NCBI GenBank assembly: GCA_937879955.1
Contig: CALFMK010000001.1
Location: 5,461 to 69,460, forward strand
DNA from: an uncultured bacterium
GTDB taxonomy: Bacteria > Patescibacteriota > Minisyncoccia > Phycocordibacterales > Phycocordibacteraceae
DNA: 64,000 nucleotides
Direction: 5' to 3'
The notes under the pieces were generated by a model that was not told where the DNA came from, searched no databases, and worked only from the letters and a program-made list of their open reading frames with translations. Position 1 is the first letter of the stretch. The number at the start of each line of letters is the position of its first letter. This document shows positions 8,258 through 64,000 of this stretch, one piece after another. A program made the translations under genes and the position numbers.

Positions 8258-8284
8258 ATTCTTCTAGAGGACGGCGATAATAAA

Positions 8285-8500
8285 CTATATATAACGTTTA
8301 ATTATCTCAACACTGCCCAAGGTCAGTATGTCTCTACCGACCACTCCGTTCTTACGGGTACTAATTACTTTAATAGCTTCTCGTTCGAGAAAGTACATTA
8401 CCGCAGTGTTCAGAATTAAATTCCTATCCCTCTCCTCTGTAACTAGTAAATCAATCGTTTCAAGGACATCCTCTGGAATATCAAGATTAATTTTAGACAC
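8285..8500 (-). CDS. Small ribbon-helix-helix (CopG/antitoxin-like) DNA-binding protein, tentative.
   Basis: 71 aa. The N-terminal strand-helix-helix pattern is INLDIPEDVLETIDLLVTEE...RNLILNTAVMYFLERE. It has a GTG start and no SD, and lies in the low-GC island. Confidence 0.35.
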   Translation of the reverse strand: MSKINLDIPEDVLETIDLLVTEERDRNLILNTAVMYFLEREAIKVISTRKNGVVGRDILTLGSVEIIKRYI

Positions 8501-8523
8501 TGTAAATTCTAAAAATTAAAGCT

Positions 8524-9003
8524 CTAGCTGAACTTCAGCATTTTCGTTTCTAAATTTTCCAGCAATATCTGATAACGCGCATCGAGAGGATTTAACTTGT
8601 AACGTATTTGACGTATAACGATTTTGTATAATTTCCCAACTTGCCCTCGCGTTTCTATACGAATACGGAAGGCTGCTGTCATTCCTGTTGGTATCTTGCA
8701 GTAAACTATCGTGCCTAGGGCAACTTGAGTTATGTTCTCTCCTCGGCATGAAATATCAGTTTTTAATATTGAACTCTGAGCCGTTCCTTCAATCTGATAT
8801 ACAAAACCGGTTGGCTTCTTGCCCGAGGCAACCGAAAGAGGAACGTATAGATCTTTCCGAGGAGCAGTTATGTTAATGATAAATATAAAATTCCCGATTA
8901 CGCGGTCAGGTCCATTAGGAATTCGCGTTCTCCTAAGATTCTCTTCAGTGTCTTTAATATCGACCAAGACATCTTTCTCCGGTGGAATGATTGGTTTATC
9001 CAT
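8524..9003 (-). CDS. Hypothetical protein (159 aa) in the low-GC island.
   Basis: An intact ORF immediately upstream of the RHH ORF on the same strand. It has no recognisable motifs and AT-rich codon usage like the island. Confidence 0.4.
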   Translation of the reverse strand: MDKPIIPPEKDVLVDIKDTEENLRRTRIPNGPDRVIGNFIFIINITAPRKDLYVPLSVASGKKPTGFVYQIEGTAQSSILKTDISCRGENITQVALGTIVYCKIPTGMTAAFRIRIETRGQVGKLYKIVIRQIRYKLNPLDARYQILLENLETKMLKFS

Positions 9004-9111
9004 ATAATCAGATAGCTCTTTGTATAAGATCAGTATGGGTTTAGGAATATGAAAAATATCTCAAAATTGCATAAAGTAATTATGGAGACAGTGGCAGAAA
9101 GCTGATCTAGT

Positions 9112-9148
9112 CACTTCGAAAAGAAGCACCGGACCACATGTCCGGTGC
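9112..9148 (-). terminator. Rho-independent terminator for the 9182..9484 gene.
   Basis: GCACCGGAC-CACAT-GTCCGGTGC hairpin, followed on the minus strand by CTTCTTTTCG. Confidence 0.55.
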
Positions 9149-9181
9149 TAACTAATATGAATCCTATAAGAAAGAGGCAAA

Positions 9182-9484
9182 TTACTTCTTACCCCAGCGC
9201 CATGATGGCTCTTCGCCAAAGCGTAGGCAGATCCGGTAGAGGGAATAGGAAAGAAGGGCGATAACGCCTGTGAACTCTAAGACTCCGAAAATGATGTCCC
9301 GGGCCCCTACATGGCTCTCGACCGCGGCACCGACCCATCCGAAGAATATAAGGAAGGCGAAGGTGAAGAGGAGGGCATAGAAGACCGTCACGGCCCATCC
9401 CTGCCATGAGACAGGGAACCAGCCCCACCCGAATTCCTTCGCCCGGAACCACAGCTTCCGGGCCTTCCTTTTGTGTTCGCTCAT
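9182..9484 (-). CDS. Small membrane protein (two predicted TM helices), function unknown.
   Basis: 100 aa. It has a basic N-terminus, a Trp-rich motif WFRAKEFGWGWFPVSWQGW and two hydrophobic spans. Confidence 0.6.
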   Translation of the reverse strand: MSEHKRKARKLWFRAKEFGWGWFPVSWQGWAVTVFYALLFTFAFLIFFGWVGAAVESHVGARDIIFGVLEFTGVIALLSYSLYRICLRFGEEPSWRWGKK

Positions 9485-9565
9485 GGGCTTATAATACTGT
9501 AAATAGGCCGTTTTATCCAGGCTTGACTCCTAAAAATGAGGGTCTCCTGAACATGAAGAATTGGC

Positions 9566-9594
9566 TTTCCACGTCTTGACAGTGGTTGTCAACC
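9566..9594 (+). promoter_or_regulatory. Sigma70-type promoter for the 3D-domain gene.
   Basis: TTGACA -35 box at about 9566-9571, a 17-nt spacer, then TACTAT at about 9589-9594. This lies about 50 nt upstream of the ATG at 9644. Confidence 0.5.
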
Positions 9595-9643
9595 CTGCTA
9601 CTATGGGCCTTGTCAGGCCGTCCGCAAGGGCGGTCTTTCATTT

Positions 9644-10258
9644 ATGCCAGTTATTGCAGTAGTAGCCCTTATGGGCTTCCTGTTTTTACCGGGTAGCGCA
9701 GGAGCGCCGGCACAAGCGGAGACGATTTCCGCGCCGGTCGCGATAGCGGGGGCGGCTGAAGAGCCTTCCAAACGCCTGGCCACCTCGAAAGAGGCGGCCC
9801 GGACCTACCAGGTAAGTATGACCGCTTACAATGCCGTTCCCGGCCAGACGGATGCCAACCCATTCGTCACCGCGAGCGGCATGGCCTCGAATCACGAGGT
9901 TGTGGCTGCGCGATCGCGCGATATGGCGGCTGAACTCCCGTTCGGCACCGTCATACGCTTCGAGCGCTCGACGAAGGACACGCCTTCGTGCCGTTTCGGC
10001 GAAGTCGAGCACTTGATGGGGTACCGCATCATCGCGGACACCATGCATGAGCGCTGGAGCCACAAGGTGGACGTGCTCTTCGACCAGACCGATACGGTCA
10101 TGGTCGAGGGACGCATCGTCAACCCGGCGCTCGCCCTCGGTATCTGCGACGACGTGACGATCACGGTCGTGGGAACTGTCGATATGACGGATCCGCCGAC
10201 CACGCAGGCCGAGCTCGCGGCGATGTTCGCCACGCCGACCTACGCGATAGCGAAATAA
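9644..10258 (+). CDS. Exported 3D-domain (YuiC/MltA-like double-psi beta-barrel) cell-wall protein.
   Basis: Signal peptide, then the motif YQVSMTAYNAVPGQTDANPFVTASGMASNHEVVAA...LPFGTVIRFE, which is characteristic of 3D-domain proteins. Confidence 0.72.
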   Translation: MPVIAVVALMGFLFLPGSAGAPAQAETISAPVAIAGAAEEPSKRLATSKEAARTYQVSMTAYNAVPGQTDANPFVTASGMASNHEVVAARSRDMAAELPFGTVIRFERSTKDTPSCRFGEVEHLMGYRIIADTMHERWSHKVDVLFDQTDTVMVEGRIVNPALALGICDDVTITVVGTVDMTDPPTTQAELAAMFATPTYAIAK

Positions 10259-12897: not shown

Positions 12898-14979
12898 CTA
12901 TGCGCGCTCGATAGTAGCGAGAATCTCCTCGATCTCAGCGAGCCCCGCCGGCTTCGTGAGATGGTGGTCGAACCCGGCCTTCCGGGCCTTCTGTATGTCG
13001 GATTCCTGGCCGTAGCCGGTGAGTGCGACGAGCGTCGCGGCGAACCCATCAGCGCGGAGCGCCGTCGCGACCTCGTAGCCCTCCATGTCCGGCAGGCCGA
13101 TGTCGAGCAGGATCACGTCAGGACGGAACGCGGGCGCGCGGGCGATAGCCTCCTCGCCGGTATATGCGGTTTCGGTACGGTTCCCGCGGAGCGTGAGGAG
13201 CTTCGCGAGCGCGTCGGCCGCGGCGCGGTTGTCGTCCACGACGAGGATGCGGAACCCGTCACGCGCCTTTGGCGCTGCTACGGCCCGTGCCCGCACCCCG
13301 ACGGCTCCCTCCTGCGGGAGCGGGATGCGGACGGTGAACCGGCTCCCGTGTCCGGGCCCGTCGCTCTCGGCCTCGATCGTGCCGTCGTGCATCTCCACCA
13401 GGTTCTTGGTAAGCGAGAGGCCGATGCCGAGACCTGCGTGCATCTTGCCGGGCTGCTCGATCTGGAAGAACGGTTCGAAGACGTGCGCAAGGAGCGCGGC
13501 GTCCATGCCGATGCCGGTGTCCGTCACCGTGACGACGGCCTCGGTCCCGTCCGTGCGTGCCACGAGCTCGATACGGCCTCCGGGCTCGGTGTACTTCGCC
13601 GCGTTGTTGAGGAGGTTCACGAACACCTGCTCGAGACGCACGGGATCGGCCTCGAGGCGGATCGCCTCGTCCGGCATGTCGATCGAGAGCTCGTGCTTGA
13701 GGGACGCCATGAGCGGCGCCACGGTACGCTGGCTCCTTGCGAGCACGGTCTGGAGGTCGATGTGCTCCTTCTGGAGGGAGAGCTTCTCGCGGGTGATGCG
13801 CGAGATGTCGAGCAGGTCGTCGAGGAGATGCCGCATGGTCTTCAGGTGGTCGGTCATGCCTTCGGCGAGCTCGCTCGAGCGAGCGGCATCCGGCCGCTCG
13901 AGCTTCATGATCTCGAGCGAGGACATGAGCGGGGCGAGCGGGTTGCGCAGCTCGTGCGCGAGGGTGGCGATGAAGCGGCTCTTCGCCTCGTCCTCACGGC
14001 GGATCCGCTCCACGGCGTCCTCGAGCCTGCGCACGTTGTCGCGCAGGACGTTCGCGGTGTCCTTGCGCTCCTCCGCGATGGAGACGAGCACGAGGAATAT
14101 GAGGGAGAGCACGATCACGAATATCTCGGTCTGCAGGAGGTCGTATCCGAGCGTCCCTGTACCGGACGCGAGGCTGAGGAACGCGGTGCCGCCGAGCGCG
14201 AGCGCGGCGTTCAGGAAGAGCGCGAGCGTCATGAAGCGCGGGCCGATGCGCAGCGCGATCCAGAGGAACGGGATGAGGATAAGGTATACGAGCGGCACCT
14301 GCGCGATCTCGCGGTATGGGGTCCAGTACAGGAGGAGGCCGGTCCCGACGACGGCCGCTATCGCGACCCAGGCCTCGACGAGCTCGCCCTTCGTGCGCTG
14401 GAACCTGAAGCGCGGCAGCCACTTGATGAGGAGCGGCGTCACGACGAGCATGGAGAGGATGTGCCCGATCCACCACGGGATGAAGGTACCCATGAGGCCG
14501 CGGGGCATGGCGCGCTCGGCCAGGGTGAAGGTGAGGGTTCCGAGCGCCGGGATGAGGATGGTGACGAAGAGCGCGACGAACACGAACATGAGGGTGTCGG
14601 GAGCCTTCGAGAAGGTGTTGCGGTATCCGAGCTTCCGGAGGAGCCAGGTGCCCACGCTTGCCTGTATGGCGTTCGCCGCCGCAAGCCCGAGCGCCACGAA
14701 CAGCACGCTCCCGTTCAGGAGCTGGTGCGCGAGAGCTGCCAGGAATACCGCAGGCCAGAGCGCGATGCCGCCGAGGAGGAGTCCGCCGAGCGCGATGCCG
14801 GATGCCGGCCAGATGAGGGCCGGGGCGGTCGGGACGGAGGAATAGATATGCGAGAAGACCTGGGCGCAGAACAGGTACGCGCAGAACAGCAGCGCCATGT
14901 AGAGGAGCGACCGTCCGGAATAGGGGAAGCGAGGCATAGACGGGTGGATGGCGTTCTCCCTAGGATACATTCTTTTCAT
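12898..14979 (-). CDS. Hybrid sensor histidine kinase: N-terminal polytopic MASE1-like membrane domain, then HisKA, HATPase and a C-terminal receiver.
   Basis: About 8 TM helices (IWPASGIALGGLLLGG...). The H-box is ATLAHELRNPLAP. The N, G1 and G2 boxes are present (DTGIGM..., GLGIGLSL). The C-terminal receiver reads ILVVDDN...DVILLDIGLPDMEG. Confidence 0.9.
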   Translation of the reverse strand: MKRMYPRENAIHPSMPRFPYSGRSLLYMALLFCAYLFCAQVFSHIYSSVPTAPALIWPASGIALGGLLLGGIALWPAVFLAALAHQLLNGSVLFVALGLAAANAIQASVGTWLLRKLGYRNTFSKAPDTLMFVFVALFVTILIPALGTLTFTLAERAMPRGLMGTFIPWWIGHILSMLVVTPLLIKWLPRFRFQRTKGELVEAWVAIAAVVGTGLLLYWTPYREIAQVPLVYLILIPFLWIALRIGPRFMTLALFLNAALALGGTAFLSLASGTGTLGYDLLQTEIFVIVLSLIFLVLVSIAEERKDTANVLRDNVRRLEDAVERIRREDEAKSRFIATLAHELRNPLAPLMSSLEIMKLERPDAARSSELAEGMTDHLKTMRHLLDDLLDISRITREKLSLQKEHIDLQTVLARSQRTVAPLMASLKHELSIDMPDEAIRLEADPVRLEQVFVNLLNNAAKYTEPGGRIELVARTDGTEAVVTVTDTGIGMDAALLAHVFEPFFQIEQPGKMHAGLGIGLSLTKNLVEMHDGTIEAESDGPGHGSRFTVRIPLPQEGAVGVRARAVAAPKARDGFRILVVDDNRAAADALAKLLTLRGNRTETAYTGEEAIARAPAFRPDVILLDIGLPDMEGYEVATALRADGFAATLVALTGYGQESDIQKARKAGFDHHLTKPAGLAEIEEILATIERA

Positions 14980-15044
14980 GAAGCCTACATGAAAGGCCCG
15001 CGCCTTGCTACGGAGCCGTGCTTCGCCGTACTATGGGCTCCACT

Positions 15045-15455
15045 ATGACAGCAAAAGGAAAGTACGTACCCGGCGAGTGGACGCTCGCCGTGAAGCGGTC
15101 GAGCGCCGGCCTCGGCCTGTTCGCGGGCGAGCGCATCCCGAAGGGCGCCTGCGTCATCGAGTATGTCGGACGCACGGTATCGAAGGAGGAGAGCGAGACG
15201 AGCAAGAGCAAGTACCTCTTCGAGATCTCGAAGAACAAGACCATCGACGGGAAGCCGAAGATAAACAAGGCGGGGTACATCAACCATGCCTGCAATCCGA
15301 ACTGCGAGACGGAGATAGCGAAAGGCCGCATCTTCGTGATGGCGATCAAGGACATAAAGCCCGGAGACGAACTCACCTACGACTACGGGAAGGAGTACTG
15401 CCTCGAGCACTGCGTCCCGTGCCGCTGCAGCGCGAAGAAGCACCTGTACGGATAG
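15045..15455 (+). CDS. SET-domain protein (putative protein-lysine methyltransferase).
   Basis: The GxG region is SAGLGLFAGERIPKGACVIEYVG. The NHxCxPN motif is INHACNPNC. The ELxxDY motif is DELTYDYG, and a Cys-rich tail follows (CVPCRCSAKKH). The longest ORF begins at 15018. The start was moved to the ATG at 15045, which sits 10 nt downstream of a TACTAT box. Other candidate starts are 15018 and 15033. Confidence 0.78.
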   Translation: MTAKGKYVPGEWTLAVKRSSAGLGLFAGERIPKGACVIEYVGRTVSKEESETSKSKYLFEISKNKTIDGKPKINKAGYINHACNPNCETEIAKGRIFVMAIKDIKPGDELTYDYGKEYCLEHCVPCRCSAKKHLYG

Positions 15456-22897: not shown

Positions 22898-22986
22898 GGG
22901 TGGCATTGTAGCAGGCCCCGGACGCGTCCAGCCACAGATTCCATCGGTTTTGCGCACCTCGCCTCACCCGCGGTATGATGGCGCCA

Positions 22987-23997
22987 ATGTCCCTCTTCTC
23001 ACCGCGCATCGGCATCGACCTCGGCACTACCAATGTCCTCGTGTTCGTGCCTGGGAAGGGCGTGGTCCTGAACGAGCCGTCGGTCGTGGCGGTCTCCACC
23101 GAGACGAACAAGGTGGTCGCCATCGGGGTGGAGGCCAAGGCGATGGTAGGCCGCACCCCGGACTCCATCCAGGCGTACCGCCCGATGAAGGATGGCGTCA
23201 TCGCGGACTATCGCGTGACCGAGGCGATGCTCCGCTATTTCATAAAGAAGGCACTCGGCCGGAACCTCTTCAAGCCCACCGTCCTCATCTCCGTGCCTGC
23301 GGGCGTTTCCTCCACCGAGAAGCGCGCCGTGATCGAGGCTGCCGTGAAGGCGGGCGCGGCAGACGCGTACGTCGTGAAGGAGCCGATCCTCGCCGCGATC
23401 GGTGCCGGAATCCCGATCCAGGAACCGATGGGGCGCATGGTGGCTGACATCGGCGGCGGCACCATCGACGTGGCCGTGATCTCGCTCGGCGGCATCGTGG
23501 CGTCCACCTCCGTGAAGGTGGCAGGGAACAAGCTCGACCGCGCGATCATCGACCATGTGAAGAAGCAGTACAACCTCTCCATCGGCGACAAGTCGGCCGA
23601 GGACATCAAGATCCAGATCGGCTCGGCCGTCCCGGTCACCGAGGAGCTCACGATGTCGGTGAAGGGACGCGACCTCCTCTCGGGCCTCCCGCGCACCATC
23701 GAGCTCAAGACCAACGAGGTGGTGCAGGCACTGAACCGCGAGCTGCGCGACATGATGAACGCGGTGCGCAAGGTGCTGCAGGACACGCCGCCTGAGCTCG
23801 CAAGCGACATCATCGACAACGGCATCATCCTTACGGGCGGCACGAGCCAGCTCCGCCATCTCCCCGAGCTCGTGTATAGGCGCACCGGCGTGCAGGCGAA
23901 GCTCGCCGACGACGCCTACTACTGCGTCGTGCGCGGCACGGGCATCGCGCTCAAGCATCTCGATACCTATAAGAAGAGCATCATCTCGAAGCGGTAA
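22987..23997 (+). CDS. mreB: Rod-shape-determining protein MreB (actin homolog), copy 1.
   Basis: MSLFSPRIGIDLGTTNVLVFVPGKGVVLNEPSVVAV... has the phosphate 1/2 and adenosine motifs. The start was chosen at the ATG 7 nt downstream of a TATGAT box. The ORF track starts at 22975. Confidence 0.9.
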   Translation: MSLFSPRIGIDLGTTNVLVFVPGKGVVLNEPSVVAVSTETNKVVAIGVEAKAMVGRTPDSIQAYRPMKDGVIADYRVTEAMLRYFIKKALGRNLFKPTVLISVPAGVSSTEKRAVIEAAVKAGAADAYVVKEPILAAIGAGIPIQEPMGRMVADIGGGTIDVAVISLGGIVASTSVKVAGNKLDRAIIDHVKKQYNLSIGDKSAEDIKIQIGSAVPVTEELTMSVKGRDLLSGLPRTIELKTNEVVQALNRELRDMMNAVRKVLQDTPPELASDIIDNGIILTGGTSQLRHLPELVYRRTGVQAKLADDAYYCVVRGTGIALKHLDTYKKSIISKR

Positions 23998-29933: not shown

Positions 29934-30995
29934 ATGGCAAAAGGAAACCGCTTCTCGAAGAGCTCGCTCTTCTCCACCGACATCGGCATCGACCTCGGCA
30001 CCGGCAATACGCTCGTGTACGTGCGCGGCCGCGGCATCGTGATATCGGAGCCGTCGGTGGTGACGCTCAACGAGAAGACCGGCCAGATGGTGGCGGTCGG
30101 GAAGGAGGCGAAGGCCATGCTCGGCAAGACGCCGCCGCACATCCGCGCGGTGCGTCCCTTGTCGCACGGCGTCATCTCCGACTTCGAGGTGACGGAGGAG
30201 CTGCTCGCGTATTTCATAAACAAGGCGCAGGGCGGACGCTCCAGGCTCTTCGGGCCAAGAGTGGTGGTGGGCGTGCCGACCGGCGTGACGAACGTCGAGT
30301 CGAGAGCGGTGCGCGACGCGGCGATGACGGCGGGCGCGCGCGAGGTGTTCATCCTCGAGGAGCCGATGGCGGGCGCGATCGGCGCGAAGCTCCCGGTCAT
30401 GGAGGCGGTGGGCACCATGGTGCTCGACATCGGCGCAGGCACTACCGACATCGCGGTCATCGCGCTCGGCGGATCGGTAGCAGGGAAGAGCTCGCAGGTC
30501 GCGGGCGACCGGTTCAACGAGAACATCATCGATTTCGTGCGCAGCGAGTTCCAGCTCGCCATCGGCGAGAAGACCGCCGAGGACACCAAGATCGCCATCG
30601 GCGCGGTGCTCCCGCTCGCGACGCCGCTCGAGAAGGCGATCCGCGGACGCGACCTCGCCACCGGCCTCCCGCGCGAGATCACCCTCAACGACTCACACAT
30701 GCGCGACGCGCTCGCGCCGTCCATGGAAGCGCTCATGGAGGCGATGAAAGAGGTCATCGAGAAGACGCCGCCCGAGCTCCTCTCGGACGTGCTCGAGCGC
30801 GGCGTCACCGTGTTCGGCGGCGGCGCCTTGCTCCGCGGCCTGCCTGAGCTCCTCGCGAAGATGCTCGGCGTGCCGGTGCACGTGGCCTCTGATCCTCTCA
30901 CGGCCGTGGTGCGTGGCACCGGCGTCGTGACGGAGGACCCGCGCCCGTGGAATGACGCATTCATGCATGAAGAAGCGATTCTCCCGAAGGCATAA
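29934..30995 (+). CDS. mreB: MreB-family actin homolog, copy 2, immediately upstream of mreC.
   Basis: MAKGNRFSKSSLFSTDIGIDLGTGNTLVYVRGRGIVISEPSVVTL... is full length. It is a paralog of the gene at 22987. Confidence 0.9.
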   Translation: MAKGNRFSKSSLFSTDIGIDLGTGNTLVYVRGRGIVISEPSVVTLNEKTGQMVAVGKEAKAMLGKTPPHIRAVRPLSHGVISDFEVTEELLAYFINKAQGGRSRLFGPRVVVGVPTGVTNVESRAVRDAAMTAGAREVFILEEPMAGAIGAKLPVMEAVGTMVLDIGAGTTDIAVIALGGSVAGKSSQVAGDRFNENIIDFVRSEFQLAIGEKTAEDTKIAIGAVLPLATPLEKAIRGRDLATGLPREITLNDSHMRDALAPSMEALMEAMKEVIEKTPPELLSDVLERGVTVFGGGALLRGLPELLAKMLGVPVHVASDPLTAVVRGTGVVTEDPRPWNDAFMHEEAILPKA

Positions 30996-39771: not shown

Positions 39772-40137
39772 ATGCTTTCAGAAGAAGTGCGCGTACGTCT
39801 GCGCGAGATGGGAGTCTTCCCGACTGACGAGGACATGCATCGGCGAAAGGACGCCAACCCCTTCTTCGAGATCCGGCCTGACAGCGAATCTCCGACCGAG
39901 ACAGAACTGAATCGTCTGACCGCTCTGACCGAGGCCTATCGGGAATGCTTCGGCGACGCCGCGACGATCAGGACGTTCTGGGGCGTGATGGCGAATACCA
40001 TTACGCTTTGGAAGTGTAAGGGTACCTGGCGCATGCGTCGCATGACGTGGACCGACAAGGGAGAGTGGACACCAGCACCGAATGGCGTCAGTATCGAAGA
40101 ACTGTTCCTAAAGGTTGCCCGCGGCACGACCGCCTGA
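39772..40137 (+). CDS. Hypothetical protein (121 aa).
   Basis: It has its own TATAGT box and AAGGAG SD. GC is lower, about 52%. No motifs recognised. Confidence 0.5.
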   Translation: MLSEEVRVRLREMGVFPTDEDMHRRKDANPFFEIRPDSESPTETELNRLTALTEAYRECFGDAATIRTFWGVMANTITLWKCKGTWRMRRMTWTDKGEWTPAPNGVSIEELFLKVARGTTA

Positions 40138-40221: not shown

Positions 40222-40296
40222 TGGTGACCTCACGGGGAATCGAACCCCGATTTGATCCGTGAGAGGGATCTGTCCTAGCCGTTAGACGATGAGGCC
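40222..40296 (-). tRNA. tRNA-Glu (anticodon CUC), with an encoded CCA end.
   Basis: The minus-strand sequence is GGCCTCATCGTCTAACGGCTAGGACAGATCCCTCTCACGGATCAAATCGGGGTTCGATTCCCCGTGAGGTCACCA. The D-loop is Glu-type (TCTAACGGCTAGGAC), the anticodon loop is CTCTCAC and the T-loop is TTCGATT. Confidence 0.85.
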
Positions 40297-40409: not shown

Positions 40410-40817
40410 ATGCACGATTATTTCGAGATCGTCGTCCCGCGCCAGACGCAGGATCCGATCGCATATATCGAGTTAGCGGAATGGGGAACGGCCACGGTCC
40501 TCTGTGCCCGAAAACGGGTCCGCATCACGTTCGAGATGACCTTCCCGTCGCAGGAGCACATGGACTCGTTCCTCGAAGCGCGTCGCACGCACCGATACGC
40601 GCAGTATGGCGGCCGCATCACGGCGCTCACGCCGACGCACCTGAGCGAGCAAATCCCGTCATCTGAGAGCGAAGATGGGGACAGTCTGGTACTCGGGATA
40701 CGGCAGCTGGCCGAGGTGTTCGGCGTAACGGAGAAGGAGTTCAAGGCGGCGAGGACGCTCGCGGAGTCCGCCATCCTCTCGAAGTACCGTTTCGGAAGAA
40801 GGAGAGCGTCTACCTAA
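40410..40817 (+). CDS. Hypothetical protein (135 aa).
   Basis: Strong SD GGAGGAGAG. No motifs recognised. Confidence 0.55.
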   Translation: MHDYFEIVVPRQTQDPIAYIELAEWGTATVLCARKRVRITFEMTFPSQEHMDSFLEARRTHRYAQYGGRITALTPTHLSEQIPSSESEDGDSLVLGIRQLAEVFGVTEKEFKAARTLAESAILSKYRFGRRRAST

Positions 40818-40858: not shown

Positions 40859-41686
40859 TCAGCGGTATTCCCGGATCCAGCATCCCATGCCGAGGATCTG
40901 CCGGTAGGTGCCGATCCTCGTCCTCCGGATGGAGAGCGCCATGCCTCGGGTGCCGAGCGCGCGGCCGATGCGCTCGGCAAGCGAGCGCATGTAGGTTCCT
41001 GACGCGCAGGTCACGCGGAGCCGCATGCTAGCGAAGCTGCGATCAGCCATGTCGTCGAACGTGTCCTTCCATGCGGCGCGTATCTCGTCCTGCCTGAAGT
41101 CCCGTCCGAGCGCTTTCGACTCATCGTCGGTGCGTGGTGCCAGATCGAGCATCGCCATGACGCGCTTCTCGAGGTCCTTCGCATCGATCTTCAGGATGTC
41201 GAGATCCGCTATGCGATAGATGGTCTCGGTGTGCGTCGGCATATCGACGGCATCGAGCGTGCCCTCGAGCGCGTGCAGGAAGAGCGGCCTGCCGCCTACG
41301 GTCTTCGACGAGTAGGGCGGGTACGGGATATCCTTCGCGCCCGTTTCCGCCTTGAGCGCCTTCCGGACCGTCCTGCCATCGGGATGGGACGCAGTTCCTG
41401 CGTAGGACGGCATGCCGAGCACGTCCCCCGTGTCAGTCGCCAGATCGAGCAGGACCTCAACCTCGTATTCCTTGTCGAGCCCGAGATATGCCTCCTTGCG
41501 CTTGCACTCGTCGCCGAGCAGCACGAGGAGCGCTCCTTCGGCCATCGGATCGAGCCTGCCGGCGTAGGTGGCCGGGAGGTGCGCGTATCGGGGATTTTCC
41601 CGCTTCCAGTCCTGAAGCGCTTGGAGCGGCGTCTGGCCGATTTTCTTATGGAGTACGATCGGGCCGGTCGGCTGGATGCTCTGCAT
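40859..41686 (-). CDS. truB: tRNA pseudouridine(55) synthase TruB.
   Basis: The catalytic Asp motif is YAGRLDPMAEGALLVLLG, in a TruB-family fold. The start was trimmed to MQSIQPTGPI. Confidence 0.9.
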   Translation of the reverse strand: MQSIQPTGPIVLHKKIGQTPLQALQDWKRENPRYAHLPATYAGRLDPMAEGALLVLLGDECKRKEAYLGLDKEYEVEVLLDLATDTGDVLGMPSYAGTASHPDGRTVRKALKAETGAKDIPYPPYSSKTVGGRPLFLHALEGTLDAVDMPTHTETIYRIADLDILKIDAKDLEKRVMAMLDLAPRTDDESKALGRDFRQDEIRAAWKDTFDDMADRSFASMRLRVTCASGTYMRSLAERIGRALGTRGMALSIRRTRIGTYRQILGMGCWIREYR

Positions 41687-41758
41687 GGTGGGTTGATGAT
41701 ACCGGCAACAGCCAGGAAAAGAAAAAGGCCCCGACATGATGTCGGGGCCAATGCTGCC

Positions 41759-42766
41759 TCATATAGGGGCGGAAAGTGCGTAGTCTCCGGTCCTCGTGGT
41801 GCGAAGCGCGCTGAGGCCGTGGCTGTGATAGAGCGCCCTCCATTCGGCATACTCCGCCGCGCTCAGTCCCGGATACTTTGCCAGGACGTAGGGAAGCGGG
41901 ATGCCGCCCTTCTCGACGAGCAGGACGATCACCGCCTTGCGGCGTATGACCCATCGCGTGTCCTGCGCTTCGGACGGGAGGTCCTCGGCGCAGATCTTCA
42001 TTCCCAGGGGGCCCGTGATCGTCTTCTTCGGGTCGAAGCAGACCGTCGGGTTCGCGCTCGGATCGAGCCTGAGCTCGCCGAAGTAGTAGCCGCGGCCCCA
42101 GACGGTCCTGAGCGGAGGGTTACCCGGGAAGAACGCCCCGAGAGCCTTCCGCATCCTGCACGCATGCACGTCGATTATCTTCGGATCGACATGCGTGCCT
42201 TCCTCGTGCCTCGCATCCAGCAGCATCTGCCGCGTATGGATGATCCCGGACTTCGAGATGAGGGTCGTGAGCAGGCGGGCCTCGTCAGGGGTGATGCGCG
42301 CGCGCTGGCCCCCGATGAAGACCTCGTCGAGCCCGTTGATGACGATCGGAACGCCTTCGTGCACGGACTCGAGCTTGGTCGCGACGGATTGCAGCTCGGC
42401 TCCGTCTTCAAGCGCGAGCATGTAGCCCCTCCTGGGATGCGTGCTGATGACCTGCCTTGCGGCGGGGTGGCACGCGGCGAGCCGCATGCGGATATGGTGG
42501 ATATGGGTGTCGATCACCTTATCGAGCGGAGGATGCTCCTTGTTGCCGTCGATGACGCGCTTGAGGCTCGCCTTCGACTGCAGATGGCCACGCCGATCCA
42601 TCATGTAGAGGAAGAGCTTCTGCTCCGAAGGCGTGAACTTGGCGGAGATCTCGTTTACTGAGACCTGGCCGCTCGAGGCGATCTTGAACACCAGCTCTCC
42701 GTACGTAAGCTGGATAGGGTCTCGCTGGGGAGCCGCGTGGGTTCCCGTACGTTCGACGACGCTCAT
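41759..42766 (-). CDS. Receiver-less transcription regulator with two tandem CtrA/OmpR-type winged-helix DNA-binding domains fused to a C-terminal DUF1153-like HTH domain.
   Basis: Domain 1 contains ...DKVIDTHIHHIRMRL...VISTHPRRGYML. Domain 2 contains ...DPKIIDVHACRMRKALG...LRTVWGRGYYF, which closely matches the CtrA recognition helix/wing ([13 protein letters not shown]...[10 protein letters not shown]). The C-terminus DTRWVIRRKAVIVLLVEKGGIPLPYVLAKYPGLSAAEYAEWRALYHSHGLSALRTTR matches the DUF1153 pattern. The start was set at the ATG with an AGGAG SD 9 nt upstream. The ORF-track TTG at 42820 lies inside the promoter/5'UTR. Confidence 0.75.
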   Translation of the reverse strand: MSVVERTGTHAAPQRDPIQLTYGELVFKIASSGQVSVNEISAKFTPSEQKLFLYMMDRRGHLQSKASLKRVIDGNKEHPPLDKVIDTHIHHIRMRLAACHPAARQVISTHPRRGYMLALEDGAELQSVATKLESVHEGVPIVINGLDEVFIGGQRARITPDEARLLTTLISKSGIIHTRQMLLDARHEEGTHVDPKIIDVHACRMRKALGAFFPGNPPLRTVWGRGYYFGELRLDPSANPTVCFDPKKTITGPLGMKICAEDLPSEAQDTRWVIRRKAVIVLLVEKGGIPLPYVLAKYPGLSAAEYAEWRALYHSHGLSALRTTRTGDYALSAPI

Positions 42767-42912: not shown

Positions 42913-43683
42913 TCAGGCCATCGGCGCCGGACTCGGGGCGCCGGAGCCGTTCGTGAAGGCCGGTCTCGCGGCCTCGGCGATCGGAAGATCTTCTGCCATC
43001 ACGCGCTCGTTCGGGTCGCGCAGCACGTAGCCGCGGCCCCAGACGGTCTCGATGTGGTGCCTGCCGCTGTTACCGGAAGCGAGCTTCCTGCGCAGCTTGC
43101 AGACGAACACGTCCACGATCTTGAGTTCCGGCTCGTCCATGCCGCCGTACAGGTGGTTCAGGAACATCTCCTTGGTGAGGGTGGTGCCCTTGCGCAAGGA
43201 GAGGAGCTCCAGTATCTGGTACTCCTTGCCGGTCAGGTGCACGTGCTTCCCGCCGATCTCGACGGTCTTCGCGTCGAGGTTCACGACGATCTCGCCGGTC
43301 TTGATGACCGACTGGGCATGACCCCGCGAGCGCCGCACGATCGCGTGGATGCGCGCGATCATCTCGTCCTTGTGGAACGGCTTGGTCATGTAGTCGTCGG
43401 CGCCGCCCGCGAAGGTCTTCACCTTCATGTCGATCTCGGCGGATCGCGCCAGGATCATGATCGGCGTGTTGACCTTCGCGACCCTGATGGTGCGAAGCAC
43501 GTCGATCGCTGACATGTCGAGCAGGTCGAGACTGAGTACGATCATGTCGTAGTCATATATCTTTGCCAGATCGACGCCCTCCTCGCCCAGGTCGGTCACG
43601 TAGACGTTGAAGCCTTCCGACTTCAGCATCAGCTCGATCGTCTGGGCGGTAGCGCTGTCGTCTTCGATCAGGAGAATACGCAC
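42913..43683 (-). CDS. CtrA-family response regulator paralog with the phospho-acceptor Asp replaced by Ser, plus a C-terminal extension.
   Basis: 256 aa. [28 protein letters not shown]...[20 protein letters not shown]...[53 protein letters not shown]...[17 protein letters not shown] matches CtrA along its whole length. The receiver position that aligns with CtrA D51 is Ser ([16 protein letters not shown]). It has a GTG start with a GAGGAG SD. Confidence 0.88.
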
Positions 43684-43736: not shown

Positions 43737-43764
43737 ATGATAGTGATTATCCGGGCATTGTCAA
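43737..43764 (-). promoter_or_regulatory. Sigma70-type promoter of the first ctrA paralog.
   Basis: On the minus strand, TTTTGACAAT, a 16-nt spacer, then TATCAT. A leader of about 60 nt with the SD follows. Confidence 0.5.
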
Positions 43765-43788: not shown

Positions 43789-43826
43789 AGGTAAGAAATT
43801 GGCCGCCCTTCGTGAGAAGGACGGCC
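43789..43826 (-). terminator. Terminator after the second ctrA gene.
   Basis: GGCCGTCCTTC-TCACG-AAGGGCGGCC, followed on the minus strand by AATTTCTTACC. Confidence 0.5.
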
Positions 43827-43851
43827 AGGTATCTTCGGATGGGTGATGCTA

Positions 43852-44596: not shown

Positions 44597-44624
44597 ATAC
44601 TACGACTACTCCATGGATTGTCAA
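44597..44624 (-). promoter_or_regulatory. Sigma70-type promoter of the second ctrA gene.
   Basis: On the minus strand, TTTGACAAT, a 16-nt spacer, then TAGTAT. This is the same architecture and the same -35-extended motif as the ctrA paralog promoter. Confidence 0.5.
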
Positions 44625-45250: not shown

Positions 45251-45706
45251 CTAGGAAAGGAGGGAATCGATCACCGCCTTCACGGCAGCGCCGTCCGCGC
45301 GTCCCTTAATCTCCTGCATGACGGCGCCCGTGAACTTGCCGGCGTCCTTCTTCTCGGAGATCCCGAGCTCTGCCATCTTCGCCTTCACCACGGCCTCGAT
45401 CTCCTCGGTGCTCATCTGCGCAGGGAGGAACGACTCGATCACGGCGAGCTCCTCCTTCTCGGGCGCGGCGAGCTCGTCACGCCCTGCGGCCGTGAACTGC
45501 TCGATGGAGTCCTTGCGCTGGTTCGCTGCGCGCTTCACAACCGCGAGCGCCTCATCGTCCGTGAGGAACTCGTCAGGCTTGCGCTTCTTCGCGACGACCT
45601 CGTTGGTCATCATGGTAGCGAGCGAACGGAGGGTGCGGAGGCGGATTTCGTCCTTTGCGCGCAGCGCATCAGGGATGCCGGCCTTTATGGTCTGATGTAG
45701 GGTCAT
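45251..45706 (-). CDS. GatB/YqeY-domain protein.
   Basis: 151 aa with a YqeY-like helical domain (…LRSLATMMTNEVV...LAVIESFLP...). Confidence 0.8.
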   Translation of the reverse strand: MTLHQTIKAGIPDALRAKDEIRLRTLRSLATMMTNEVVAKKRKPDEFLTDDEALAVVKRAANQRKDSIEQFTAAGRDELAAPEKEELAVIESFLPAQMSTEEIEAVVKAKMAELGISEKKDAGKFTGAVMQEIKGRADGAAVKAVIDSLLS

Positions 45707-61886: not shown

Positions 61887-62006
61887 ATGGCACGCCGAGC
61901 AAAGAAACATTCCAAGGGACCGGGGCTCGAGGTCTACGCGTTCTGGACCGGGTTCGCGAGCACTATCATCAGCCTCCTGCACGTGCTCATCGTGGCGAGC
62001 AAGTAG
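61887..62006 (+). CDS. Small tail-anchored hydrophobic peptide (39 aa), paralog B.
   Basis: MARRAKKHSKGPGLEVYAFWTGFASTIISLLHVLIVASK. It aligns with paralog A over the core (K..L.LYAF.TG..ST.ISL..L.I.A.K-stop). Confidence 0.4.
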   Translation: MARRAKKHSKGPGLEVYAFWTGFASTIISLLHVLIVASK

Positions 62007-62010
62007 CGCC

Positions 62011-62130
62011 ATGGCAGAGAATAAGCCTGCACCATCGTTCCGTGACCCGAAGCGCGGCATGAGCGCGTTCTCGAGCAAGGGCGTGAAGAAGCCTGTACGC
62101 GCGTCGTATTTCGGAAAGAAGGCGCGATAG
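62011..62130 (+). CDS. Small basic ORF (39 aa), tentative.
   Basis: MAENKPAPSFRDPKRGMSAFSSKGVKKPVRASYFGKKAR. It is the third in the tandem series, immediately before a terminator. Confidence 0.25.
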   Translation: MAENKPAPSFRDPKRGMSAFSSKGVKKPVRASYFGKKAR

Positions 62131-62136
62131 GGAAGG

Positions 62137-62170
62137 GAAAAGCCGGAGTAGGGATGCTCCGGCTTTTACG
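62137..62170. terminator. Bidirectional terminator.
   Basis: AGCCGGAG-TAGGGATG-CTCCGGCT flanked by AAAA and TTTT. Confidence 0.65.
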
Positions 62171-62182
62171 TAGGTGGATGCG

Positions 62183-62368
62183 TCATCGGGTGCGGCCGCT
62201 GTAGGTGAGCACGCCGGCGATTATGATCGCGACGGTGACAGTCCGTCCGGCGATCTGTACGACAGGGTCCGGATGGAGATTCGCCGCGAGCGAGCAGAGC
62301 AGCATCACGAGAGCGACGGTGTACAGAATGATCGAGATACCCCTACTTTCAGGACTATGACGCGACAT
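62183..62368 (-). CDS. Small membrane protein (61 aa, two TM helices).
   Basis: IILYTVALVMLLCSLAANL...VAIIIAGVLTY. An AGGAAAGG SD sits upstream. Confidence 0.45.
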   Translation of the reverse strand: MSRHSPESRGISIILYTVALVMLLCSLAANLHPDPVVQIAGRTVTVAIIIAGVLTYSGRTR

Positions 62369-62552
62369 GGCACGGACCTTTCCTAAAGAGCGATACCGAG
62401 CTCTTCCGCTAGTATGCGCTCCGCCGGGGATTTGTTAAGCAGAAAGGCACTCGACTTTATCTTTTCTTTATCTCTCGTACATACACTGAGCCGGGTAGTT
62501 CTTTCATCCTGCAAGGTCGCCCGTAGCGACTGCGCATGAATACCCGCATAGG

Positions 62553-62590
62553 GGAGAGCGAACCGTCCGTCAGGGCGGTTCGCTCTTTAG
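62553..62590 (+). terminator. Rho-independent terminator ending a possible small RNA.
   Basis: AGAGCGAACCG-(tccgtcaggg)-CGGTTCGCTCT followed by TTAG. The next gene has its own TATAGT box 10 nt upstream of its ATG. Confidence 0.6.
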
Positions 62591-62648
62591 TGGTGTAATA
62601 TTTTAGCCCTAAACACGGTACGCGCACGGTGCTATAGTCGAGGTATCT

Positions 62649-63014
62649 ATGCCTTGGCCACGAGTGGGGGACTGGTTGGAGAGGATCAGTAAATCGAACG
62701 CGCTCTATCCGCTCCTCATAGCGCTATGCCTCTCCGTCGCGTTCGCCGGTACGGTCATAGCATTCGTACCGAACGTTCTCATCCAGGTCATCGTCTGTAT
62801 ACCAGTGCTGATGATCGTATTCCAGATCGTCCGGAGCTTCGAGTACTTCTCCAAGAACAACCCGGACATGCTCCGGACCGAGACGCATGTGATCCAGCAG
62901 CGCGTCCTCGAGATGATGGGGGACGAGTCCGGCGTCGTGCACGCGACTGCGGCCGACCTGGTAGCCATAACGAATCCTGCGAATACCCAGGATAGAATCG
63001 AAAACCATGGCTAA
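62649..63014 (+). CDS. Membrane protein (121 aa).
   Basis: Two TM helices (LYPLLIALCLSVAFAGTVIAFV; IQVIVCIPVLMIVFQIV). Confidence 0.55.
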   Translation: MPWPRVGDWLERISKSNALYPLLIALCLSVAFAGTVIAFVPNVLIQVIVCIPVLMIVFQIVRSFEYFSKNNPDMLRTETHVIQQRVLEMMGDESGVVHATAADLVAITNPANTQDRIENHG

Positions 63015-63294
63015 CATCTATCTTATCGCCGTAAAGAATGATGATTCCTTCAATGTTAAGGAATTCCATAAATTTGTTAAGGAAAAACTCTATCCTGAGC
63101 ATGTGGGCGGTTGGTGGCATTACGTTTCTGGACCAACCTATCTCGTTAAGTCGGAAACACTTGATGCTAAGGGAATATCCGAAATCATCACCCAGTTCAC
63201 TGGCAAGCAGAGTCATCTTGTTACCAAGATCGATCTAGAAGATATCGAAGGAATGTTGCCGGCTCGCGCATGGGACTGGCTCGGACTCTACTAA
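63007..63294 (+). CDS. Hypothetical protein in the terminal low-GC island (95 aa).
   Basis: Intact ORF at about 40% GC. No motifs recognised. Confidence 0.45.
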   Translation: MANIYLIAVKNDDSFNVKEFHKFVKEKLYPEHVGGWWHYVSGPTYLVKSETLDAKGISEIITQFTGKQSHLVTKIDLEDIEGMLPARAWDWLGLY

Positions 63295-63512
63295 TGGAGC
63301 ACATCACACTTCAAGAGTATGAAGATACTGATGGAACGAGGATGGAGCTCGGTATCCAGTATGACGAAGCTACCTACCAGTTCATCGTTTCCGGAACGCC
63401 AATTAATGGCAATGGGGCGTATGAGGCAGGGAAGACGCCCATTTTCGCATCCTTCCCGACCCTCGAAGAAGCAAGGATGTTCGTAGAAAAGAGTTTCACT
63501 AAGATCTCCTAG
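63295..63512 (+). CDS. Hypothetical protein in the terminal low-GC island (72 aa).
   Basis: Its ATG directly follows the upstream stop (TAATGG). No motifs recognised. Confidence 0.4.
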
Positions 63513-63571
63513 GAATCTTCGGTTTATTTTTTCTCCAGGATTCCTTTATCCGGGGCTGGTAGGGTTCGGAT

Positions 63572-64000
63572 ATGGCAATGGTAGAAGAAAATCTGATACT
63601 TTCCCTCTTGAAGAAAGAGTTTCCGAAGGCGCCCGAACAGGTATTGAGACAATGGCTTGCTCCAGCTGTTAAGAAGGACGGTTGGCCACCGACCGGACTT
63701 CATTGGATCGGTGTATTGGGGAAAAGGGATCTGGATTTCTGGAAAAAGAAGGAATGGTCCCTTAAGGACGTTAACCTCGAAGAAGCTTCCTGGGATTACG
63801 ATACTAGGTACGCGGCAGAAAAGGTGCTCGAAGGGTTTGTTGCATCTCAAGAATCTGAAGTCCTCTTCTCTGATTCTCATGAGAAGCAGAAGGTCATACG
63901 AGCACTTAAGCACCTTTCAGTCGAAGGAAGCTTCTTCGAGCCGATAACCGCATTTCTCGTAGAAAACGAATCTGGTGGCTACTCGCTCGTAGACGGATTC
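63572..64000 (+). CDS. Hypothetical protein, 5' fragment running off the window. Its reading frame stays open to the window end.
   Basis: A 143-codon open frame (MAMVEENLILSLLKKEFPKAPEQVLRQWLAPAVKKDGWPP...) with no stop before 64000. It is low GC. I prefer it over the overlapping minus-strand ORF 63524..63913, which has low-complexity, junk-like composition. Confidence 0.4.
   Translation, partial: MAMVEENLILSLLKKEFPKAPEQVLRQWLAPAVKKDGWPPTGLHWIGVLGKRDLDFWKKKEWSLKDVNLEEASWDYDTRYAAEKVLEGFVASQESEVLFSDSHEKQKVIRALKHLSVEGSFFEPITAFLVENESGGYSLVDGF

Follow-up and report, generated by a model that had tools for sequence, protein, structure and literature searches.

CtrA is regarded as typical of the Alphaproteobacteria, a hallmark of that class, and the ...AA-COOH end of the Caulobacter protein serves as a ClpXP degradation tag. 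The phosphorylation site and this C-terminal degron are the features altered in the engineered Caulobacter alleles ctrA(D51E) and ctrA-delta3-omega. Besides CtrA itself, regulators of the OmpR family that lack the phospho-acceptor aspartate are already known as a kind, examples being HP1043 (HsrA) and HP1021 of Helicobacter and ChxR of Chlamydia. A canonical receiver domain has five catalytic residues, DD, D, T and K (PMC12632262), and atypical response regulators with a pseudo-receiver, or aspartate-less receiver (ALR), have been defined as well (PMC12632262, PMC4395418). In Caulobacter, SciP inhibits CtrA-activated promoters, and residues T168 and T170 tune the promoter choice of CtrA (PMC6847485). 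Here we describe CtrA-S, which is encoded in a 64,000-nucleotide stretch (the window) of contig CALFMK010000001.1 (assembly GCA_937879955.1) from an uncultured bacterium of the candidate phyla radiation (CPR), next to a second ctrA gene (CtrA2) and a SciP-derived fusion gene. CtrA-S probably works as a transcription factor of the CtrA family, one whose receiver is aspartate-less; it would have been acquired horizontally from a Caulobacter-like alphaproteobacterium and would act independently of phosphorylation. Feature coordinates are collected in Table 1.

CtrA-S scored 379.9 bits on the NCBIfam CtrA equivalog NF045991 ('response regulator transcription factor CtrA', cutoff 350 bits) and is thereby a member of this family. 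The corresponding scores were 410.2 bits for Caulobacter CtrA, 401.5 and 389.9 bits for the CtrA copies found on contigs L027 and L087 from two related CPR species, and 357.8 bits for CtrA2, every CPR copy thus clearing the cutoff. Pfam matches were obtained for Response_reg (72.5 bits, residues 3-112) and Trans_reg_C (PF00486, 73 bits, residues 145-221), and this C-terminal domain together with full-length alignments to DrrD and BasR places the protein in the OmpR/PhoB subfamily. It aligns to Caulobacter vibrioides CtrA over 230 residues without gaps at 85% identity. Its closest database relatives are Caulobacter CtrA proteins, with 85-86% identity over these common 230 residues, and no database protein exceeds 86%.

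The receiver and winged-helix architecture is thus common to both proteins, as are D8/D9, Y98, K101 and T168/T170, whereas the phosphorylation site is not. Ser51 of CtrA-S stands opposite Asp51 of C. vibrioides CtrA in the ungapped alignment, and HMMER alignments to the receivers of Brucella CtrA (4qpj), Thermotoga DrrD (1kgs) and BasR (8jo2) likewise put S51 on the phospho-Asp without gaps. The Asp51 that takes up CckA-ChpT phosphate in the definition of a functional CtrA is therefore missing. The same procedure put Ala79 on the conserved Thr of DrrD and BasR. Among 207 other CtrA-like proteins, residue 51 is Asp in 204 and Glu in three, and residue 79 is Ser in 199 and Thr in eight; Asp53, which CtrA-S has in common with the L087 copy, occurs in none of them. 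Of the five canonical residues, D8, D9 and K101 (followed by P and F) are present in CtrA-S, and the acceptor Asp and the Ser/Thr at position 79 are replaced by Ser and Ala. Being recognised by the receiver profile while lacking the Asp of the phosphorylation site, the domain is an ALR.

The changes are concentrated at the active site. Of 102 near-invariant positions (conserved in at least 97% of the 207 CtrAs; 44 in the receiver and 58 in residues 121-229), 95 are retained in CtrA-S, the exceptions being V3I, D51S, P55L, G59A, G80R, I190V and K199R. Non-conservative changes cluster around the lost acceptor, with D51S, P55L, G59A and G80R making up four of the five receiver changes, and I190V and K199R are the only differences among the 58 positions of residues 121-229. 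T168 and T170 are retained, and the recognition-helix region is conserved relative to Caulobacter CtrA. Across the alpha4-beta5-alpha5 face (residues 84-119), CtrA-S differs from Caulobacter CtrA at 2 of 36 residues, T86M and V115I. An AlphaFold2 (AF2) model, with a mean predicted local distance difference test score (pLDDT) of 81 and values of 84-93 over residues 1-110, predicted that the (beta-alpha)5 fold of five strand-helix units is retained. In this model beta3 spans residues 47-51, beta4 75-79 and beta5 97-100; S51 lies at the C-terminal end of beta3, A79 at the end of beta4, K101 just after beta5, and D53 two residues into the loop.

An earlier note on this DNA, made from the sequence alone, had claimed that the phospho-acceptor Asp is replaced by Ser, and this was borne out by the ungapped alignments to Caulobacter CtrA, 4qpj, 1kgs and 8jo2. 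No Asp occupies the equivalent position, D53 being a loop residue in the AF2 model and S51 the one at the end of beta3. Its statements that the acidic pocket (D8/D9) and the Lys of TKPF (K101) are kept and that the DNA-binding domain is essentially intact also agree with our results, and the 25-residue C-terminal tail that it described is real. The T/S, however, was wrongly listed as kept: residue 79 is Ala (GCG), against Ser or Thr in 207/207 other CtrAs. Furthermore, the 'CtrA' string used in that comparison is the Caulobacter sequence, which the window does not encode.

The tail is the second point at which CtrA-S departs from Caulobacter CtrA, with a 25-residue extension instead of the AA-COOH end. 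A second strain (contig L004, see below) has this tail with 100% identity, and it is predicted to be disordered (pLDDT below 50 over residues 228-250). CtrA-S ends in ...SPAPMA, whereas CtrA2 and the L027 and L087 copies all end in AA. The junction reads GCA GAA GAT in CtrA-S versus GCT GCG TAA in L087, and one suggestion is that the tail arose by loss of the stop codon. Read-through into a conserved 3' untranslated region was considered as its source, but the DNA downstream of ctrA does not align between the species. The gene itself starts with GTG, 8 nt downstream of the ribosome-binding site GAGGAG.

Loss of the acceptor is not confined to CtrA-S. The L087 copy (P0034) has N51, D53, D79 and A80 and is also Asp-less, and codon 51 is GAT in L027, AAT in L087 and AGT in CtrA-S, which reads as a path of single substitutions. 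CtrA-S and the L087 copy have D53, V71, A82, K146 and M229 in common, residues that both CtrA2 and L027 lack; a further common residue, I115, occurs in CtrA2 as well. In neighbour-joining trees (85 representatives, simple distance correction), the two were sisters with 94% bootstrap support, or 96% with the receiver alone. Between the two Asp-less receivers dN/dS was 0.117 at a dS of 0.95, and between CtrA-S and Caulobacter ctrA it was 0.134, with dS near saturation for some pairs and influenced by the bias in G+C content at third codon positions (GC3). With both ratios low, the pseudo-receiver has been maintained under selection instead of decaying.

A proposed comparison with orthologs in related genomes gave a divided answer, since the Asp loss is common to L087, where the residue is Asn, and L027 retains D51. 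Outside this group, a divergent CtrA-like protein, P0254 (Logan SRR31153000, contig L002, 1495..2235; 282.8 bits, under the CtrA cutoff), also has Ser51 and Ala79. It has further lost the acidic pair (VENS), carries TKLF, and is encoded near a single-domain receiver gene. By its sequence, the D-to-S change recurs in this unrelated protein. Another database protein, P0002, was considered as a close ortholog (477 bits) and rejected, being a 350-residue, internally duplicated product with D51 on a 1.6-kb contig.

The genome carrying CtrA-S belongs to the Patescibacteria/Paceibacterota and is not alphaproteobacterial. By exact sequence match, DnaB, GreA and MreB of the window belong to clusters that bear the names Patescibacteria group bacterium, Candidatus Paceibacterota bacterium and Parcubacteria bacterium C7867-004. 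Scanning GTDB genomes with the window YqeY returned 80 loci, most of them titled Paceibacterota, Parcubacteria or Patescibacteria, many with 'uncultured Candidatus Saccharibacteria' or a generic title, and none alphaproteobacterial. The gene content of the window is a compact housekeeping set, with no CckA, ChpT or other pathway genes visible within its 64 kb, and CtrA-S thus does not sit beside the CckA/ChpT/DivK pathway of an alphaproteobacterial genome.

Synteny of yqeY and truB was seen in ~20 of the 80 loci. In ~20 related Paceibacterota species the two genes lie just 0.5-1.9 kb apart and enclose no ctrA, and the ctrA cassette was found in 3 of ~21 related species. From yqeY to truB, the cassette consists in the window of two small open reading frames (ORFs), CtrA2, CtrA-S, and a fusion of two winged helix-turn-helix (wHTH) domains to a SciP domain, hereafter (wHTH)2-SciP. 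The SciP domain scored 63.7 bits on Pfam DUF1153 (cutoff 23.5) and stays below the NCBIfam SciP equivalog cutoff (61 versus 100). This fusion accompanies ctrA in all three CPR species with lengths of 328-339 residues (7179..8165 in L087, 3199..4218 in L027), and it is fast-evolving, with 24-33% identity between species. Rare receiver-wHTH-SciP and SciP-CtrA fusions also exist in the protein database (P0169-P0175). CtrA2 alters otherwise invariant CtrA positions (P74L, L78S, E184V, P224E, T170S and T168A).

Independent assemblies join CPR genes to ctrA. From a closely related strain (Logan SRR14271336), contig L004 (97.2% nucleotide identity) contains the 3'-terminal 43 codons of CtrA-S with the complete tail, followed by the fusion, truB and orf135, and contig L005 (94.8%) contains genes for RmuC, an ATPase, RadC and YqeY, then both small ORFs and the initial 25 codons of CtrA2. 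CtrA-S and CtrA2 have exact runs of 30-39 nt in common, which is why these contigs break inside the ctrA genes. In L087 (Logan SRR12983620), the order is RmuC, ATPase, yqeY, a 133-residue ORF, a major facilitator superfamily gene, CtrA, a 328-residue fusion, a 134-residue ORF and truB. L027 and L088, which represent one species, have yqeY, CtrA (D51, T79, ...AIAA end), a 339-residue fusion and truB. The locus is accordingly not chimeric. Among the 80 yqeY loci only L027 has the cassette, and a metagenome scan added just L088.

All four CPR CtrA copies are closest to the genus Caulobacter (77-87% identity), and the best neighbour-joining tree unites them in a single clade whose sister group is C. 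vibrioides and C. segnis. All four carry N205, a residue seen in 0/207 other sequences, and this favours common ancestry. M108 occurs in the two Asp-less CPR copies and otherwise only in a Caulobacter-centred subset (24/207), and the receivers of the same two copies group with Caulobacter (76% bootstrap). The ctrA genes are compositionally foreign: GC3 is 0.73 in L027 ctrA (2338..3033) versus ~0.50 in its neighbours and 0.82 in L087 ctrA (6318..7013) versus ~0.52, as compared with 0.86 in Caulobacter ctrA, whereas the L027 fusion gene is fully ameliorated (0.52). This contrast suggests either that the genes have been resident for different lengths of time or that ctrA has repeatedly been replaced by copies from a high-GC donor. 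A CPR-wide CtrA family was considered and rejected, as large protein searches revealed no CPR-specific clade and the best matches of both copies in the window were from Caulobacter. A phage origin was likewise rejected: tblastn against 50,697 phage records gave one partial match of 63.8% identity (57% of the query), the rest being below 60%, and scans of IMG/VR with the fusion alignment and with CtrA-S did not find the cassette.

We propose that this CPR clade took up the ctrA gene of a Caulobacter-like alphaproteobacterium, together with a SciP-derived gene, and that it became established in the slot between yqeY and truB. In the lineage of CtrA-S and L087 the phospho-acceptor (D to N to S) and the Ser/Thr79 switch residue would then have been lost, while purifying selection would have continued to act on the remainder of the receiver and on the entire DNA-binding domain. 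CtrA-S would fold as a normal receiver and winged helix and, judged from its sequence, would bind CtrA-type sites as a dimer. It should not be switchable by Asp phosphorylation, and its activity would be set by expression from its own sigma-70-type promoter. We infer this phosphorylation independence from the loss of D and T in two sister copies under purifying selection. Modulation by the adjacent (wHTH)2-SciP protein is possible by analogy, because SciP directly binds and inhibits CtrA in Caulobacter, and pairing with the intact-site CtrA2 may also occur. As the extension removes the ...AA-COOH end, proteolysis is probably altered. The view of the earlier note that CtrA-S is phosphorylation-independent or differently regulated is therefore strengthened by the missing acceptor, the Asp-less L087 copy and the purifying selection. 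Its description of CtrA-S as a paralog is apt with respect to the intact-site tandem copy, but not in the sense of a paralog within a native CtrA network, since both belong to a horizontally acquired CtrA.

Several observations weigh against this proposal, and some of them point to other explanations. The S51 codon is covered by one assembly alone, and the sister-strain contigs break inside both paralogs, which would be expected if a Caulobacter ctrA fragment had been stitched into a CPR contig or if the Ser were a sequencing error. Such an artefact is hardly credible. The breaks are explained by the exact repeats between the paralogs; L004 connects CtrA-S, at its 3' end, with the fusion and truB, L005 connects the 5' end of CtrA2 with yqeY, and in other species the slot is occupied likewise (L087, L027 and L088). 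No database protein exceeds 86% identity to CtrA-S, five other nearby residues differ too, and Ser51 is not a single-base error because AGT lies two substitutions from GAY. The raised dN/dS of 0.37 between CtrA-S and CtrA2 would rather fit a decaying relic, with a degenerating receiver and no function, in a genome without CckA-ChpT; the successive active-site losses (D51, S79 and G80, then P55 and G59 in CtrA-S) and the presence of the cassette in so few of the related species would agree with this. We consider decay quite unlikely, since the reading frame is unbroken and comes with a promoter, a ribosome-binding site and a hairpin as terminator, the near-invariant positions and the alpha4-beta5-alpha5 face are almost all preserved, and the low receiver dN/dS holds between copies that are both Asp-less. 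Dead genes would, moreover, rarely be kept in a genome of ~0.6 Mb. Ser51 or Asp53 could in principle be modified, and CtrA-S might then still be phospho-switched, at Ser51 by a Ser/Thr kinase or at Asp53 by a histidine kinase or phosphotransferase. In favour of this, D8/D9 and K101 remain in place, Asp53 is peculiar to the two Asp-less copies, a hybrid MASE1 histidine kinase is encoded at 12898..14979, and CheY D57N is reportedly phosphorylated on the neighbouring Ser56. However, Ser phosphorylation cannot be a conserved mechanism when the sister copy has Asn51, the Thr/Ser through which the phosphoryl group acts on the conformational switch has been lost from both copies (A79, D79), and D53 sits in the beta3-alpha3 loop rather than at the strand end, with P55 and G59 of that loop changed in CtrA-S; phosphorylation at another residue is accordingly unlikely.

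Further points concern binding sites and history. The motif TTAA-N7-TTAA, even with one mismatch, was observed 0 times in the 64-kb window (1.97 expected) and has 0 sites in the cassette loci of L027, L087 and L088, and no TTAACCAT boxes or TTAA pairs were found upstream of the cassette genes; at these lengths 0.03 and 2 sites are expected, and such absence therefore carries no information and is no negative result. The four CPR copies were monophyletic with a bootstrap value of 18%, and the gene tree disagrees with the flank tree, in which yqeY and truB of the window group with L006 (no cassette) and those of L087 with L027. The DNA-binding domain of CtrA-S groups with CtrA2 (80% bootstrap), and nucleotide identity between the two genes is 0.88-0.90 at nt 360-450 and 0.87 at nt 600-660 versus 0.63-0.72 around the active site, which indicates that CtrA-S is a mosaic with gene-conversion tracts from its tandem neighbour. 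Possible histories are a single transfer followed by loss, an ancient tandem pair of which members were lost differentially, passage of the cassette from CPR to CPR via the conserved flanks, and repeated replacement from a high-GC donor. A different role is also conceivable, in which a CPR epibiont uses a non-phosphorylatable, degron-masked CtrA and the SciP fusion to interfere with, or read, the regulon of a Caulobacter-like host. The protein is Caulobacter-derived and still 85% identical, its dimer face is almost unchanged, both control features of Caulobacter CtrA (phosphorylation site and C-terminal AA) are altered, and the foreign composition of ctrA in low-GC CPR genomes suggests continuing exchange with a high-GC donor. 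CtrA-S nevertheless lacks a signal peptide and any known route of delivery, the promoters look native, and the canonical L027 CtrA and the catalytic residues of CtrA2 fit internal use better, so that we regard a host-directed mimic as distinctly unlikely. A wider form of the idea is that a Paceibacterota lineage captured, and perhaps re-samples, the CtrA-SciP module of a Caulobacter-like host, the Asp-less and degron-masked CtrA coupling the symbiont to the host programme or interfering with the host CtrA regulon. This too is rather unlikely; if true, it would mean regulatory mimicry by a CPR bacterium and provide a genomic marker of its host.

Taken as a phosphorylation-independent transcription factor, CtrA-S resembles HP1043, HP1021 and ChxR in being of the OmpR/PhoB type, in having lost the phospho-acceptor while keeping the fold and the DNA-binding domain, and in being expected to act without phosphorylation. 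Those regulators are old, divergent lineages, whereas CtrA-S is recent, only ~15% diverged from the canonical regulator; it also has intermediates in its relatives (D51 in L027, N51 in L087) and adjoins a paralog with an intact site. With ctrA(D51E) and ctrA-delta3-omega it has in common that the same control points, residue 51 and the C-terminal AA, are changed, here naturally and with a 25-residue tail predicted to be disordered. To our knowledge, neither Ser nor the Asn of L087 is a phosphomimic. In contrast to Caulobacter CtrA, CtrA-S occurs in a Patescibacteria genome and is preceded by a TTGACA-type promoter, and no CtrA, GcrA or other Caulobacter-type elements were found upstream of the cassette genes. 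The gene adjoining CtrA-S resembles Caulobacter SciP in ending with a DUF1153/SciP domain and in travelling with ctrA, and differs from it in that the CPR domain is fused to two winged-helix domains.

A full-text literature search found no paper linking CtrA to the CPR or Patescibacteria. New here are the CtrA-SciP module in Patescibacteria, the (wHTH)2-SciP fusion, and a natural series that leads from the canonical CtrA to Asp-less forms. The module probably matters to the cell, since both ctrA genes and the SciP-derived fusion are retained in a genome known from a 591-kb contig. The three-species series of D51, N51 and S51 with further erosion of the active site, all 85-87% identical to a well-studied regulator, is a good system for studying how a receiver becomes a pseudo-receiver and what maintains selection on it. 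The Caulobacter-like origin and foreign GC3 of ctrA also lead to a testable hypothesis on the host or partner of an uncultured Paceibacterota clade.

Table 1. Features of the ctrA cassette and its flanks (window coordinates)
Feature	Position	Strand	Description or basis
CtrA-S gene	42913..43683	-	256-aa CtrA-family response regulator with aspartate-less receiver; ORF call, Pfam, NCBIfam
CtrA-S receiver domain, residues 1-120	43324..43683	-	Pseudo-receiver without both D and T; Pfam and AF2
CtrA-S codon 51, AGT (Ser)	43531..43533	-	Phospho-acceptor position
CtrA-S codon 53, GAC (Asp)	43525..43527	-	'D+2' loop position; codon alignment
CtrA-S codon 79, GCG (Ala)	43447..43449	-	Conserved Ser/Thr replaced, end of beta4
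CtrA-S codon 101, Lys of TKPF	43381..43383	-	Conserved, kept; alignments
CtrA-S winged-helix DNA-binding domain, residues 145-221	43021..43251	-	Pfam Trans_reg_C
CtrA-S 25-residue C-terminal extension	42916..42990	-	Replaces ancestral ...AA-COOH end
CtrA-S sigma-70-like promoter	43737..43764	-	TTGACA, 16 nt, TATCAT; 11/12 consensus matches
G+C-rich hairpin just 3' of CtrA-S stop codon	42855..42883	-	Likely terminator; read by eye, not called by consensus scan
CtrA2, tandem CtrA paralog, 231 aa	43852..44547	-	D8, D9, D51, T79, K101, ...SAA end; 357.8 bits on NF045991
CtrA2 promoter, TTGACA-type	44624..44597	-	Consensus scan
CtrA2 terminator	43827..43800	-	Consensus scan
335-aa fusion, two Trans_reg_C winged-helix domains and C-terminal SciP/DUF1153	41759..42766	-	Pfam
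yqeY, conserved Paceibacterota gene, one flank of slot	45251..45706	-	Synteny
truB-like pseudouridine synthase gene, other flank of slot	40859..41737	-	Synteny

Beyond truB, a tRNA-Glu(CTC) gene (40222..40296, minus strand) adjoins two lineage-specific ORFs, orf135 (40410..40817) and orf121 (39772..40137), neither of which has a homolog among the 80 related loci. Between the two strains, divergence is highest in orf135 with its adjoining stretch, at ~8-9% versus ~1.6-1.9% in truB and the fusion. The hybrid histidine kinase mentioned above (693 residues, minus strand) has a MASE1 sensor, HisKA, HATPase_c and a C-terminal receiver. It was considered as a CckA homolog and rejected, as NCBIfam gave only generic matches to hybrid kinases with a MASE1 sensor; it is a possible candidate for the upstream kinase of the intact-site CtrA2 if a histidine phosphotransfer protein exists. 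Adjoining it is a gene for a 145-residue SET-domain protein (15018..15455, plus strand; Pfam SET, 86 bits), which is unusual for a small bacterial genome.

Two stretches of the window have a low GC content. The one at ~5864..10000 (0.47 versus ~0.64) encodes a 797-residue protein with beta-helix, Big_7 and peptidoglycan-binding domains and looks like a separately acquired island. The other, at 62000..64000 (0.515), holds short ORFs of low GC3, one of which was searched and gave no Pfam match. Two MreB paralogs are encoded on the plus strand (22975..23997 and 29934..30995), the second with MreC and a gene resembling that of penicillin-binding protein 2 downstream.

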